Source: Candidatus Anderseniibacteriota bacterium
GTDB taxonomy: Bacteria > Patescibacteriota > Andersenbacteria > UBA10190
Direction: 5' to 3'
NCBI GenBank assembly: GCA_021414205.1
Contig: JAIOOW010000003.1
Location: 300,365 to 364,364 of the forward strand
DNA: 64,000 nt
Shown piece after piece: positions 22,845 through 62,622 of the stretch; the first letter of the stretch is position 1, and every line of letters starts with the position of its first letter. Under the pieces are notes generated by a model. It was not told the DNA's origin and made no database searches. It worked only from the letters and a program-made list of their open reading frames with translations. The position numbers were made by a program, and so were the translations under genes.

Positions 22845-23615
22845 TTAGTTGTCGGATGCTCCAGGTGGATTCGATAAAAGAAGCGTTGCAAGAAGCGATC
22901 CGAATATATCCATCGATTGGAGGGATCTGCCAAGGGCTCTGCGCATGTTTTGCAGCAATTCTTTTACCGACCATTGTTGCTGTTGGGCCGAAAGTGCGCA
23001 TCTTGAGTATACGGTCGCCCATGCCTCAAGGAATGATCGTTGTTCTGAAATCATTCCTCTGCAAATCTCCGCGATGTCCTCTCCGTATTCATCAATTGAT
23101 GGAAGTGCCTCGTTATTTGGTGAGTAAGGAATTCTTGGCGGGAGCGAGATGTGTGTAAATGCGGGAGGCAGAAGTCTGGTTAGTTTTCTTATTTTTCTCA
23201 CCACTTCTTTCCAAGCTACTGAATACCAATTTATCCAGTCCTCAGGACGGCATAAGTCGTCCTCTAGGAAAGTGAACGTGGCATGCGCTTCTCCCCACAT
23301 TTTGCCTCCGCTCAGTTCGTATCTGCCAATCCAGTAGGATTGGTCATCGAACTGAGCGTGGAATCGGTATGCAATTGGCTCTGCGTGATAAGGCGGATTC
23401 CCGATATATTCTTTGATAAAGCCTCTTCCTTGCTCGGGATGATCAGTGATTGCTGATAGTTTTGCTAATCCATTTTCGTCAATCATGAAGCCTCTGTATT
23501 GTGCTCCTGCGCATTCGCGGAACAATATTCCTTGATACCAGTATCCTTGGATTCCTTTCGCGGGACAAAGTTGAAAGTACAGTCCGGTAATCTGGATTAC
23601 GTTGCCAGTAATCAT
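22845..23615 (-). CDS. hypothetical protein containing a GNPPY motif
   Basis: AGGA RBS 9 nt before ATG (MITGNVIQ). IGNPPYHAE resembles motif IV of amino-methyltransferases, but no SAM-binding GxGxG is seen. Confidence 0.5.
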   Translation of the reverse strand: MITGNVIQITGLYFQLCPAKGIQGYWYQGILFRECAGAQYRGFMIDENGLAKLSAITDHPEQGRGFIKEYIGNPPYHAEPIAYRFHAQFDDQSYWIGRYELSGGKMWGEAHATFTFLEDDLCRPEDWINWYSVAWKEVVRKIRKLTRLLPPAFTHISLPPRIPYSPNNEALPSIDEYGEDIAEICRGMISEQRSFLEAWATVYSRCALSAQQQQWSVKELLQNMRRALGRSLQSMDIFGSLLATLLLSNPPGASDN

Positions 23616-41456: not shown

Positions 41457-42689
41457 CTACCAACTACCAAGAGAACCTCCACCATCGAATCCTCCACCTC
41501 CTCCAAACCCGCTAGCATCTCCAAATCCAAGAGATGAATTGGAGGGCTGGTCCGAATGTGAAGAGTGGTCGCTGGACTCTGCTTGGTGATTAGTCGCCGC
41601 TGCTCGATTGACGCTGCTCTCAATTTCGCTTAAGAGCACATAGAGAATAATCCAGTCAGTGGTACTTAATCCTGAATACTGAGTCCGTGCTTGATCGTAC
41701 TTTGCTCGTGCATCTTTGAGATGTTGAGCTGCTTTTGCGGAGGTGCTATTGGCAAGCCTACCCTCCGCCTCCTCGATCATGCCAGGGATTCTGTTGAAGA
41801 GCTCTGGACCTTCTTCTCGTGCCTTCTTGGCGAAAGCAATTTCTTGCTTGATTTTGCGTTCAGCACTACCAAGTAGGAAATTAACTGATTCGAGCTCCTC
41901 TCGAAGTTTTGACCAGGCGACTCCCCTGCTTTTCGGCGTTACCTCATTGATTGAGGAAAGTCGTTCGGCCAACCCATTGAGATCAGTTCGCGTTTTCTCC
42001 TTAATTTCAGGATTTTTTGCTGTTTCAAGTGCTTGAGAAAATCGATTTGTAATAACCCCTCTTTTTTCAAGAATATACCTGCGATTCTCGAAGCGATTTG
42101 TCACAACGAGAGCAACAATCAGGATTAGTACCACGACGGCAACCCCCACGCCAATCCAAAGCCCAGTCGTACTGTCGTACGATTGTTCCGAGGAAGCGGG
42201 AGATGGTTGCTCTGAAGTCGTGTTCAGAGCGTTCATGATTGCGTGCGCCCCGCCCAAAACTCCTTGTGCCATGTTGCCTGATTTAAAATGAGGCAAAACT
42301 GCCAAATCTCTAATCTGGTCCGCACGGCTGTCGGTAAGCATTGAGCGAATGCCCGATGCTACTTCGATTCGCATCTTGCGTTCTTTTGGGGCGATGAGGA
42401 AAACTATGCCATTATTTTGGCCGCTTTTCCCCACGCCCCACTCTTTTCCGATTCCTTTGGCGTACTCATCCACGCTCTGGTTATTAAGCCAGGGCACGGT
42501 AACGACGGCTATTTCGATCGATGTTTCTTTCTCGAACGAGGCCAGTGCGTCGTTGAGCTCAATTCGTTGCTCGCTACTGAGCAATTGAGCAAAATCGTTG
42601 ACGTAGCCGGTCGCTTTTGGGTACTGCTGTGCATGAGTGATTGAGGCTCCGCTCAGGAGCAGTGTCACAGTTAAGAACAGCTTCTGCAT
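41457..42689 (-). CDS. TPM-domain (TLP18.3/Psb32/MOLO-1 family) membrane protein with Gly-rich C-terminus
   Basis: Signal peptide, TPM domain (YVNDFAQLLSSEQRIELNDAL..EIAVVTV), central TM, long coiled-coil-like cytoplasmic region, terminal GFGGGGGFDGGGS tail typical of the family. Confidence 0.75.
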   Translation of the reverse strand: MQKLFLTVTLLLSGASITHAQQYPKATGYVNDFAQLLSSEQRIELNDALASFEKETSIEIAVVTVPWLNNQSVDEYAKGIGKEWGVGKSGQNNGIVFLIAPKERKMRIEVASGIRSMLTDSRADQIRDLAVLPHFKSGNMAQGVLGGAHAIMNALNTTSEQPSPASSEQSYDSTTGLWIGVGVAVVVLILIVALVVTNRFENRRYILEKRGVITNRFSQALETAKNPEIKEKTRTDLNGLAERLSSINEVTPKSRGVAWSKLREELESVNFLLGSAERKIKQEIAFAKKAREEGPELFNRIPGMIEEAEGRLANSTSAKAAQHLKDARAKYDQARTQYSGLSTTDWIILYVLLSEIESSVNRAAATNHQAESSDHSSHSDQPSNSSLGFGDASGFGGGGGFDGGGSLGSW

Positions 42690-60059: not shown

Positions 60060-61553
60060 ATGTCCCGATTACAAGCAGGTCTATTACTATTTTTTATTAT
60101 TTTAGCAGGGACTGCCGTGCGGTCGTATAGCATTACGGCGAGAAGTTTGTGGTTCGACGAGGCGTTTTCGTGGAGATTGATTCATTTTCCGCTTACGGAA
60201 ATGATAACGCGCGATGCGCAGGATGTTCATCCGCCGTTATATTACATATTACTACAAGGTTGGAGCAAGGGATTCGGCACGTCGTTGTTGGCACTTCGTA
60301 TGTTCTCCGTATTTTGCTCAGCGATTGCGCTCTGGGCAGGATATATATTTTCTTCATATGCGTTCAAGTCTCGAAAAGTAGGATTCCTTGCTGTAACGCT
60401 GCTTGCTATTTCTGGCTGGGATATTTCATATGCATGGGAGGCGCGCATGTATCCGCTCGGAATGATTTTTGCATTTCTATCTTCGTATGCGTTACTGAAA
60501 GCCCTTCGGAATGTTTCTCTGAAATGGTCTGTTGCGTATGGCTTTGCGGCGGCGGCGCTTATATATACTCATTATTACGGATACTTTACGGTGGCCGCTC
60601 AGGCACTATTCGCAATTATCTTTCTTATTCGGGCAAAAAATATGCGCCTTGCGCTCTATGCCGGTATTGCGGGCGTGCTCGCCGTTCTCTTGTATCTGCC
60701 GTGGATCCCTGTGTTCTTGCACCAAAATCAGCAGGTTCGGACGGCGTATTGGGTGCCACCCATCGCAATCACTTCCGTGCCGGATACGTTTTATCAGTTT
60801 TTCGTTCCCACGAAAGAAATTCCCCCGCACCATTTCCCGATTGTTGTTCTTTCAACGTTGCCGATTATCGGCGTGATTTGCCTGTGGGTTTGGATGTTTT
60901 TCAAAAAACGCATGCGAAGAGATGCTTCTGTACTGACTGCTATGCTCGGTATTGTTCCATTTATTGCAGGTATTGCAGTTTCGTTTTTGGGGCGAAGTTT
61001 GTATAACGACAGATTCTTTGCGTTTGCTGGCATCTTTGTTTTTTGCGCCCTTGCGTATGCGCTGATGCAAATTCCAAACAAAATACTCAGGAGAATTCTA
61101 ATAGTAGTGGTAATTGTCGGTCTTGGTGCAAGCTATCTTAGGTATTGGAATGAACTAGACATTATGTATAAGCCTGGCGCGCACGGAGCGACGCAATACG
61201 TATTTGAGCAGCGATCAAACGATGATCCTGTACTAGTGAGTTCTCCGTATGTATATTTTGCGATTGAAAATTATGCAACGGATGAATTTTTAGCCCCGAA
61301 TGCCGTACATTTGTTTTCGCAAACAGGAGAATTGTCGCATTTCTCCGGAGGGCCAATAATGGTGCAAAGTGATATCGTGGGGCCGAGCGATGTAGTAAAA
61401 TACGCTCACACCGTATGGGTTATCGATACGACCGGCTACACTGAAACGCCGTTTCAAGTCCCGAGCAACTGGACCCAGGTAAGCAGTAAGACCTTTCCAG
61501 AAGTATTTGTATACCAAGGAGATATTACGGTCAGGCAGTTTGAAGTGAAATAA
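60060..61553 (+). CDS. GT-C fold membrane glycosyltransferase (family 39/83, ArnT/PMT-like)
   Basis: N-terminal DE motif in the first periplasmic loop (LWFDEAFS) and HPPLYY, 10-12 TM helices, C-terminal soluble domain. Confidence 0.75.
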   Translation: MSRLQAGLLLFFIILAGTAVRSYSITARSLWFDEAFSWRLIHFPLTEMITRDAQDVHPPLYYILLQGWSKGFGTSLLALRMFSVFCSAIALWAGYIFSSYAFKSRKVGFLAVTLLAISGWDISYAWEARMYPLGMIFAFLSSYALLKALRNVSLKWSVAYGFAAAALIYTHYYGYFTVAAQALFAIIFLIRAKNMRLALYAGIAGVLAVLLYLPWIPVFLHQNQQVRTAYWVPPIAITSVPDTFYQFFVPTKEIPPHHFPIVVLSTLPIIGVICLWVWMFFKKRMRRDASVLTAMLGIVPFIAGIAVSFLGRSLYNDRFFAFAGIFVFCALAYALMQIPNKILRRILIVVVIVGLGASYLRYWNELDIMYKPGAHGATQYVFEQRSNDDPVLVSSPYVYFAIENYATDEFLAPNAVHLFSQTGELSHFSGGPIMVQSDIVGPSDVVKYAHTVWVIDTTGYTETPFQVPSNWTQVSSKTFPEVFVYQGDITVRQFEVK

Positions 61554-61557
61554 AAAT

Positions 61558-61729
61558 ACCCCCGCCAGCTGGAGTTTTGCGTAGGATGTTGGGAAAGCGT
61601 TGTGGATGCTTTCTCTCTTACATCTCTAGGCAAAACGTCGACAGCTGGTCGGGGGTTCGGAAACCGCCACGAACAAATCGGAAGAAGCGCTGCAACGACA
61701 CAGCGTAGTGGCTCGATTTGTTCGCGTGG
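61558..61729. ncRNA. candidate structured RNA/complex terminator region (long nested inverted repeats), identity unknown
   Basis: CCCCCGCCAGCTGG(61558)..CCAGCTGGTCGGGGG(61642-61656) enclose AGTTTTGC..GCAAAAC; a second long hairpin pairs CCACGAACAAATCG(61667) with CGATTTGTTCGCGTGG(61729). GC-rich relative to flanks; lies between convergent genes. Confidence 0.25.
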
Positions 61730-61833
61730 ACCAGGGTATAGAAGGCGCGTACGGCGAGTCGAAGTATGCTTTATAGCAATACAGCTTTGGTATGGTGACC
61801 TAGCGTCACAACGCCGTCCGCGCTTTTAAAAGA

Positions 61834-62622
61834 TCAACTCGAAACTGACGATTTGTAATATACTCTATTAGGTATTCGTAAGTCAATATACTGCAATGTT
61901 TGCATCTCCTGGGCTGTTACGGTGTGCTCTAGGAGGCGTTTGAGGATATCGAGCTGATCGTCTGCTGACCTGGTCGTATCCATGAGGAGCGTCCAGTTTT
62001 TATCTAGGAGAAAATGAGCCTCTCGCGTTTCCAGCGAAGGGATTTGTATTTCAACGACTTGGGCGTTTGCTGCATCTGGTAGTTTTTTGAGAGTTTCGGC
62101 AATGAACGAAATAAATTGGTCATCTACTGCCCTAGTTCCAAGGGTTACCTTGGCATTTTGATCAGAGGTTTTTACTACTGGCAGCACAATTCCCGGTAAT
62201 GCATCTAATGACGCTTCTTCATATGCTATTCCTTGATTATCTAGAAAATAATACGTTCCCCCAGATAATAATAACAACACGGGCGTTTTTTCTTGAATCA
62301 CAACCTTTATAGTGCCGGGCAATTTGCGAATAATGTGAGCATCTTTTACTTGCGGAACTTTTTGCAGAATTTCTCGTTCAGTTGGTTTTGTTTGCGCAAA
62401 CAAAATATTCTGACCAATGCTCTTTTCTGCAATTGCGCGAACGGCGACTTCCGTATTCGGCTTTGCATCGACTATGGTAACAGTGGTGATGGAAAATGTT
62501 TTAGTGAAAAATAACAGCCAGATGAATAAGATGGCTGGGACAATAACAAGCAGCGCAAGAAATGCAACAGACGACCAATCCATCAATTTGCGGAGCAATA
62601 CGCGCCATCGAACGCTATTCAT
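61834..62622 (-). CDS. ftsQ: cell division protein FtsQ/DivIB (POTRA domain)
   Basis: N-terminal TM, POTRA-like region (ITTVTIVDAKPNTEVAVRAIAEKSIGQNI) and beta-domain of typical length. Confidence 0.7.
   Translation of the reverse strand: MNSVRWRVLLRKLMDWSSVAFLALLVIVPAILFIWLLFFTKTFSITTVTIVDAKPNTEVAVRAIAEKSIGQNILFAQTKPTEREILQKVPQVKDAHIIRKLPGTIKVVIQEKTPVLLLLSGGTYYFLDNQGIAYEEASLDALPGIVLPVVKTSDQNAKVTLGTRAVDDQFISFIAETLKKLPDAANAQVVEIQIPSLETREAHFLLDKNWTLLMDTTRSADDQLDILKRLLEHTVTAQEMQTLQYIDLRIPNRVYYKSSVSS

Follow-up and report, generated by a model that had tools for sequence, protein, structure and literature searches.

Hairpins and palindromes at the ends of bacterial genes have been described in several forms. 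Canonical Rho-independent ('L-shaped') terminators close a transcription unit with a GC-rich stem, usually of 5–15 bp and contained within less than about 50 nt, and a U-tract that follows it directly on the transcribed strand. 'X-shaped' or bidirectional terminators go with overlapping convergent 3' UTRs, and are recognized by an A-tract upstream and a U-tract downstream of one hairpin. A third form is the 3'-end small RNA (sRNA), such as E. coli MicL and Salmonella DapZ, which is transcribed from a promoter within the upstream coding region and shares the terminator of the mRNA. Finally, REP/BIME-type palindromic units and MITEs also occur in spacers between convergent genes. Our literature search on terminators and structured RNAs of the CPR found nothing relevant.

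Here we describe a hairpin-rich spacer in a CPR genome that can be compared with each of these forms. The spacer is a real, selected and lineage-specific structured block located where two genes converge, and its appearance is that of a rather ordinary structure at a gene end; it belongs to no known RNA family.

The spacer and its relatives

The window, the whole 64-kb stretch of DNA analysed here, is identified by its FtsQ as part of a MAG of an uncultured Candidatus Andersenbacteria (Parcubacteria/CPR). Within it, 280 bp at 61554–61833 separate the stops of two convergent genes. The plus-strand gene encodes a GT-C-type glycosyltransferase (Pfam PMT_2; 60060–61553, stop TAA at 61551–61553), and the minus-strand gene is ftsQ (Pfam POTRA_1 and FtsQ_DivIB_C; 61834–62622); both ends, at 61553 and 61834, had been placed correctly in the preliminary description. 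ftsQ is the last gene of a minus-strand run that begins with an aminoacyl-tRNA synthetase (aaRS) gene of the tRNA-synt_2 type and continues through serS. The order aaRS–serS–ftsQ, then the convergent GT-C gene, a hypothetical gene and GtrA, is identical in every relative fetched.

The spacer folds as three hairpin domains, hereafter H1, H2 and H3. Its minimum free energy is −127 kcal/mol on the plus strand (z −7.8) and −112.8 kcal/mol on the minus strand (z −7.3), a difference of 14 kcal/mol in favor of the plus strand, and none of 200 dinucleotide shuffles reached the native value on either strand. Terminators and other near-perfect inverted repeats typically fold, as here, almost equally well on either strand. 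By contrast, the aspS leader, also in this window, folds on a single strand (z −6.3 on plus, −1.0 on minus). GC content is raised (52.5% versus 45.3% for the window), although at the 97th percentile of 280-nt windows the spacer is not "far" GC-richer, as first described. Comparison with the other terminators of this genome, which are hairpins of 20–59 nt with energies of −14 to −34 kcal/mol, upholds the initial impression that the spacer holds more structure than terminators need.

We also considered coding potential and copy number. Six ORFs of 22–75 aa overlap the spacer, and the 75-aa and 59-aa ORFs have no Pfam match. We rejected a coding spacer because indels of 1, 2 and 3 nt among relatives with 98.5% identical FtsQ break the ORF frames. 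A blastn-short search of the 64-kb window found no second copy of the spacer, and neither the window nor the related DNA fetched contains a second copy of H1, H2 or H3.

Spacer size differs greatly among relatives, which we order here by the identity of their FtsQ to that of the window (100%, 280 nt). Three genomes at 98.5% (L001, L025 and L026) have spacers of 350–352 nt. At 89%, L152/L153 have a spacer of 4 nt with no hairpin. Intermediate relatives have 106 nt (L007, 88.5%), 238 nt (L019, 85%), 109 nt (L027, 84%), 136 nt (L003, 79%), 190 nt (L002, 76%) and 98 nt (L009, 71%). The two genes overlap in L010 (68%) and are 2 nt apart in L004 (62%), and the more distant L005 (59%) and L006 (52%) carry unrelated hairpins in spacers of 127 and 392 nt. 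Relatives at 84–89% FtsQ identity have H1 only, apart from the one at 89% that has the 4-nt spacer. The 4-nt and 2-nt spacers and the overlap in L010 imply that the hairpin block is dispensable. A metagenome scan with patterns from the FtsQ alignment, which fell in the N-terminal membrane segment, was uninformative: it matched 600 stretches, none of them from a relative.

This variation among relatives is a pattern impossible for a housekeeping RNA, and there is next to no chance that the spacer encodes a divergent 6S, SRP, RNase P or tmRNA. The sole support for such an identity was the impression, in the preliminary description, of a long hairpin together with an SRP-like GGAAGAAGC string; the string lies in an internal loop of H2, has no SRP context and gives no Rfam SRP match. 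At gathering thresholds, Rfam models match only four tRNAs in the whole window, all outside the spacer, and nothing in 13 related loci. At E ≤ 10, Rfam 15 yields for either strand of the spacer only a nematode miRNA model (mir-242_2, 26 bits against a gathering threshold of 56), and for a relative with a long H3 and for L006 only sub-threshold eukaryotic miRNA and lncRNA hairpin models. ARAGORN found four tRNAs elsewhere in the window and no tmRNA. The absence of the block from L152/L153, L004 and L010 already refutes a housekeeping role, and with no gathering-level match and no universality among related genomes we rejected it. What stands of the earlier interpretation is the structure itself, which far exceeds chance and is accompanied by compensatory changes, and, as a candidate, its third option of a lineage-specific sRNA. 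The spacer can thereby be struck off as a lead to any missing 6S, SRP or RNase P RNA.

H1 and its U-tract

H1 (61558–61656; 99 nt, 40 bp) corresponds to the imperfect hairpin of about 100 nt noticed at the outset. We assign it to the minus strand, although it also forms in any plus-strand read-through RNA. It folds with −59.6 kcal/mol (z −7.6) on the plus strand and −50.6 kcal/mol (z −9.1) on the minus strand, and a GC-corrected sliding fold found no 120-nt stretch in the 64 kb more stable than it. Its base is a GC-rich helix of 13 bp, CCCCCGCCAGCUG/CAGCUGGUCGGGGG.

H1 is the conserved core of the block. All ten distinct spacers from syntenic loci with FtsQ identity from 71% upward contain an ortholog, adjoining the GT-C stop, and in all ten the base is a perfect GC-rich helix of 11–13 bp whose sequence differs among genomes. 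Examples of the base sequence are CCCCCGCCAG, CGCGTCGTCAG, GGCGTCGCCAG, CGCGCCACCAG and CCCCACCAG, and the arms found paired include CCCCCGCCAG.../...CUGGUCGGGGG, CGCGUCGUCAG/CUGACGACGCG, GGCGUCGCCAG/CUGGCGACGCC, CGCGCCACCAG/CUGGUGGCGCG and CCCCACCAG/CUGGUGGGG. Read directly from the ortholog sequences, at least 8 positions of the base helix have changed on both sides. These changes were taken from per-sequence folds, since a MAFFT alignment of the ten H1 sequences mis-registers the two arm types. When H1 and H2 are taken together across the four closest sequences, 96.4% of cells are paired and 4 pairs are compensatory, a value that 2 of 500 shuffles reached and no slid control did (all 0). 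The comparison with orthologous spacers found pairing kept by compensatory changes.

Nine of ten orthologs keep H1 at a length of 79–104 nt even as its distal sequence turns over; in L003 it measures 44 nt. Conserved within H1 is a GGAG/TCRAC motif with a 2-nt purine bulge. In its extended form, CCAG(CYG)GAG...TCRAC(RGC)CTGG, a regex search of the window and the related loci finds this motif at this locus only. A metagenome scan with CCAGCYGGAG-N35-65-TCRACRGCTGG gave at least 120 matches, and none of the matches listed lay near ftsQ or a GT-C gene. We take these matches to be chance occurrences of a self-complementary pattern; the best-folding of those inspected lie in GC-rich DNA.

The strand of H1 is indicated most clearly by what follows it. 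On the minus strand, H1 runs straight into a U-tract, UAUUUUUAUUUC (61546–61557), that overlaps the GT-C stop and last codon, and a separate scan also marked 61546–61557 as terminator-like on that strand. Eight of ten orthologs have 7–8 U among the 9 minus-strand nt that come next after H1 (UAUUUUUAUUU in the window); the exceptions are L019, which has no U-tract, and L009, in which it follows a 5-nt spacer. On the plus strand the corresponding 9 nt contain 1–4 U, with a U-tract in none of the orthologs. The A-run that the plus strand shows here runs past the GT-C stop codon and is thus not explained by coding. The terminator signature of H1 lies opposite to the strand on which the hairpin was originally written.

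With its GC-rich base and minus-strand-specific U-tract, H1 is best read as a long Rho-independent terminator on the ftsQ strand. We give a probability of roughly 55% to the reading that this conserved core serves the ftsQ operon as an oversized intrinsic terminator, judging from sequence comparison. H1 and its U-tract would then end the serS–ftsQ transcript at the border of the convergent GT-C gene, and the spacer as a whole would be the structured 3' end of transcription from the ftsQ strand. The position fits, in that ftsQ is the last gene of the co-directional run in all syntenic loci. The minimal unit is what is seen in L007, L027 and L009, whose spacers of 98–109 nt consist of the ftsQ stop, about 20 nt, H1, the U-tract and the GT-C stop. 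GC-rich stems with U-tracts also occur at other operon ends in the window. Most of these are hairpins of 20–40 nt, and one at another gene end (1557–1625) is a three-tier hairpin of 59 nt followed by U7, from which it follows that long terminator stems occur elsewhere in this genome.

Several observations count against this terminator reading. A stem of 40 bp in 99 nt exceeds the usual size and what termination needs, yet a hairpin of 79–104 nt is retained in nine of ten orthologs. Termination does not account for the conserved GGAG/TCRAC motif and purine bulge. In the window, H1 sits 180 nt past the ftsQ stop. Moreover, the plus strand of the window is the more stable, and G-U pairs are lost on the minus strand, where seven G-U pairs of the plus-strand H1 and H2 become A-C mismatches.

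The accessory hairpins H2 and H3

H2 (61659–61732; 74 nt, 24 bp; z −4.1 on plus, −3.2 on minus) consists of a CGAACAAAUCG/CGAUUUGUUCG stem and an inner GCGCUG/CAGCGU stem. It is the second hairpin of the preliminary description, given there as about 60 nt with an inner GCGCTG..CAGCG stem. Only the window genome and the three relatives whose FtsQ is 98.5% identical have H2, which is missing from L007, L027, L009, L002, L003 and L019. One pair of the inner stem has changed from C-G to U-A, which indicates that pairing is maintained. A viral scan with an 18-mer from H2 gave four matches, none of which has the partner arm, and we dismissed them as chance.

H3 (61741–61827; 87 nt, 31 bp; z −3.6 on plus, −2.7 on minus) is a branched hairpin adjoining the ftsQ stop that had been overlooked. 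It is closed by a GGCGCGUACGGCG/CGCCGUCCGCGC stem followed by UUUU. Direct reading shows this closing stem to be homologous to that of a 180-nt H3 in L001, L025 and L026 and to the second hairpin of L003. Compared with the window (GCG-U-ACGG-C-GAG/CGCCGUCCGC), the long form (GCG-G-ACGG-U-GAG/CACCGUCCGC) shows one C-G to U-A exchange. The interior has been replaced: 53 nt in the window correspond to about 150 nt of unrelated, branched and covarying sequence in the three relatives, and a blastn comparison of the window spacer with L001 matches only spacer positions 1–177. The long H3 has 4–5 compensatory pairs. Its consensus fold is better on the minus strand (−77.2 versus −73.1 on plus), and three A-C mismatches on the plus strand become G-U pairs on the minus strand.

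The plus-strand sequence after H3, UUUUAAAAGA (61824–61833), could serve the GT-C gene of this genome as a weak terminator tail. Adjoining the ftsQ stop, AAAGA is conserved in the clade. The U-run is lacking in L001, L025 and L026, which read GCUG[G/U]AAAAGA, and is weak in L002 and L003. Since UUUU follows H3 on the plus strand in the window genome only, a GT-C terminator made of the two is possible there and is not conserved. If H1 ends the ftsQ transcript, H2 and H3 are strain-specific hairpins of its 3' UTR, lineage-specific additions between the ftsQ stop and the terminator. They may protect the 3' end of the RNA, stop the convergent GT-C transcript (H3 with UUUU, on the plus strand), or both.

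Alternative readings

A promoter-like site in ftsQ raises an alternative that we consider unlikely but worth detailing, in which the block belongs to a separate minus-strand small RNA. The site, TTGACT-N18-TATATT (61857–61886, minus strand), falls within the final 50 nt of ftsQ, where it matches the consensus at 10 of 12 positions. The RNA would start near 61849 and end at H1, giving a length of about 300 nt in the window and about 130 nt in relatives with H1 only, with H2 and H3 as modular insertions. This reading has the step at which H1 acts as terminator in common with the one we prefer; it differs in the 5' end and in attributing to the RNA a function of its own. Both hexamers are kept in all ten H1-bearing orthologs (TTGACT or TTGACC; TATATT or TATACT). 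In particular, the four-fold-degenerate codon of Val254, which supplies the critical −10 A, is GTA in all ten, and it is GTG in L152, a nested close relative from which the spacer was lost, and in outgroups L004–L006, where the resulting −10 (TGTATT or TGTACT) has lost that A. No other run of this kind in ftsQ varies as little at synonymous sites as its last 14 invariant codons, which score 0.31 versus a gene mean of 0.51 and 0.53 for the remaining codons (seven non-redundant sequences; p ~0.003 by resampling, 0.011 with stratification by amino acid). However, the motif overlaps a highly conserved peptide, YIDLRIPNRVYYK, whose Tyr-Tyr codons nearly dictate TATATT, and L010 keeps TATATT with no spacer at all. 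The correlation between the −10 and H1 depends on very few independent events, and the 18-nt spacing of the hexamers is suboptimal. The RNA body differs even among close strains, and no conserved single-stranded seed is evident except UGAUCUUU at the ftsQ stop; the only other shared candidate is a loose GCGAUAC-like spacer adjoining H1. A lineage-specific Andersenbacteria sRNA whose body changes by insertion of whole hairpin modules between near-identical strains is thus a tentative proposal, drawn from comparison of sequences. If true, it would rank with the earliest sRNA candidates from a CPR/Patescibacteria lineage, as far as we know and as far as the literature was searched. A real embedded promoter would also make the locus a compact comparative case of the birth of a 3'-end sRNA and its remodelling as hairpins are inserted, in organisms in which RNA regulation has hardly been explored.

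We regard each of the two remaining alternatives as improbable. One places the element on the plus strand, either as structure in the 3' UTR of the GT-C mRNA or as an ncRNA in its own right that ends at H3 and UUUU. H1 begins only 4 nt past the GT-C stop, the window folds better on the plus strand both as a whole and in H1, and H1 is more stable on plus in seven of ten orthologs (22 G-U pairs versus 13 on minus). The G-U pairs are conserved across four sequences, and the window has the UUUU after H3. Yet no ortholog has a plus-strand U-tract after H1, the three closest relatives lack the U-run after H3, and there is no near plus-strand promoter, the nearest match (9 of 12) being 200 nt inside the GT-C gene. 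A G>C skew on the plus strand biases G-U counts and on its own favors G-U pairs there. Assignment of strand by G-U pairs and energies is in conflict, as H1 and H2 slightly favor plus and the better consensus fold of the long H3 favors minus. The other alternative dispenses with RNA function and sees DNA-level palindromes, either mobile or REP-like remnants or products of template-switch replication, that accumulate where genes converge for want of selection against them there; in the template-switch case the same errors would also keep the hairpins perfect. It draws on the presence and absence of hairpins and wholesale replacement of their interiors among genomes with 89–98.5% identical FtsQ, on the about equal folding of both strands, and on the unrelated GC-rich palindromes at the equivalent position in the distant L005 and L006; L005 carries two similar units, CTCTCCCAATTCTGGGAGAG and TTCTCCCCAATTGGGGAGAA. 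Quasipalindrome correction is also pertinent, as template switching within a palindrome can mimic compensatory change. The empty site in L152 reads TAA-AAAA-TCA and the filled sites are flanked by A-runs, a configuration that fits microhomology deletion equally well. Against such an origin, the 64-kb window and the related DNA fetched contain no further copy of the element, where REP elements or MITEs would be expected in many copies per genome, and neither evident terminal inverted repeats nor a clear duplication of the target accompany it. Furthermore, H1 has been inherited stably at one locus across FtsQ identities of 71–100% and has retained a strand-specific U-tract that a neutral palindrome would not require.

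Comparison with known systems

The spacer resembles each of the described gene-end elements in part. Like X-shaped terminators, it lies between a convergent pair and has its putative minus-strand terminator at the far side of the spacer, such that plus and minus transcripts would be expected to overlap across 100–350 nt. Unlike them, H1 carries its U-tract on the minus strand alone and is therefore not bidirectional. With REP/BIME units and MITEs it shares GC-rich imperfect palindromes that cluster at convergent gene ends and are gained and lost as modules between strains. It differs from them in that the hairpins are single copy in the 64 kb and related DNA fetched, share no unit sequence among H1, H2 and H3, and come without evident terminal repeats or a clear target duplication.

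The likeness to MicL and DapZ is the promoter-like motif in the last 50 nt of ftsQ, together with low synonymous variation and a predicted end at the operon terminator. Unlike these sRNAs, the candidate has no evident conserved seed beyond UGAUCUUU, and its body would consist of long, near-perfect hairpins that vary between close strains.

The comparison with canonical Rho-independent terminators is the one on which our preferred reading is built. The departures are of scale and placement: H1 has 40 bp in 99 nt where stems of 5–15 bp are usual, with a long stem in nine of ten orthologs; it contains the conserved internal GGAG/TCRAC motif and 2-nt bulge; and it stands 180 nt after the stop codon, behind two more hairpins. 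Gene-end annotation of CPR MAGs could make use of the range seen at this locus, where the convergent genes vary from overlapping to being 390 nt of pure hairpins apart. What H1 shares with the canonical form is its place at an operon end and a GC-rich stem with the U-tract directly behind it on the transcribed strand, which would suggest that this CPR lineage uses classical hairpin and U-tract terminators, here in an oversized and fast-evolving form.

An empty site between the GT-C glycosyltransferase gene and ftsQ

The spacer between the convergent GT-C glycosyltransferase gene and ftsQ holds no hairpins in the relatives L152 and L153. At L152 (2285–2297), the GT-C stop codon TAA is followed by AAAA and then directly by the ftsQ stop, and L153 is identical in sequence. 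The FtsQ of L152 is 89% identical to that of the window and 93% identical to that of a further relative, L007. The entire hairpin block is missing from this junction, which makes it a clean empty site. The Val254 codon of L152 ftsQ, which falls within the promoter-like -10 element, is GTG and not GTA.

GC-rich hairpins also fill the ftsQ/GT-C spacer of the more distant Andersenbacteria L005 (2097–2223) and L006 (4787–5178), where they are unrelated in sequence and have no Rfam matches at gathering thresholds. In L005, two palindromes (CTCTCCCAATTCTGGGAGAG and TTCTCCCCAATTGGGGAGAA) are alike and resemble a repeated unit. In L006 the hairpins extend over ~390 nt, and a minus-strand hairpin with a U-tract adjoins the GT-C stop.

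Conservation at the 3' end of ftsQ

Across the clade, synonymous sites are unusually conserved in the last ~20 codons of ftsQ (61834–61908 in the window), and TGATCTTT, located at the ftsQ stop and just past it, is retained in nine of ten cases. This conservation could reflect an embedded promoter or another overlapping signal.

A second putative long terminator and a candidate aspS leader

Near the start of the window, a plus-strand ORF of 114 amino acids without a Pfam match (1195–1539) is followed by a three-tier 59-nt hairpin (1557–1615; -34.4 kcal/mol) and then U7, the whole element spanning 1557–1625. This hairpin and U-tract are predicted to form another unusually long intrinsic terminator in the same genome. 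Taken whole, the region 1000–1790 has a z of about -1.3, structure no greater than composition explains. A 312-amino-acid minus-strand ORF (56–994) matches no Pfam family at E≤0.01. Sliding folds also found two coding stretches that are strongly structured on both strands, 23241–23420 (z to -3.7) and 42100–42500 (z to -4.1).

TTGACA-N16-TATAAT occurs without mismatch just once in the 64-kb window, on the plus strand at 1639–1666, ~400 nt upstream of aspS (plus strand, GTG start at 2070; Pfam tRNA-synt_2 and GAD). Strong folding of the intervening 1780–2069 is confined to the plus strand (-99.7 kcal/mol, z -6.3; minus strand z -1.0). This stretch has no Rfam match at E≤1 and is therefore not a recognisable T-box. 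Within 1639–2069, it is a candidate novel cis-regulatory leader for an aminoacyl-tRNA synthetase gene of this CPR bacterium, possibly of greater interest than the ftsQ/GT-C spacer.
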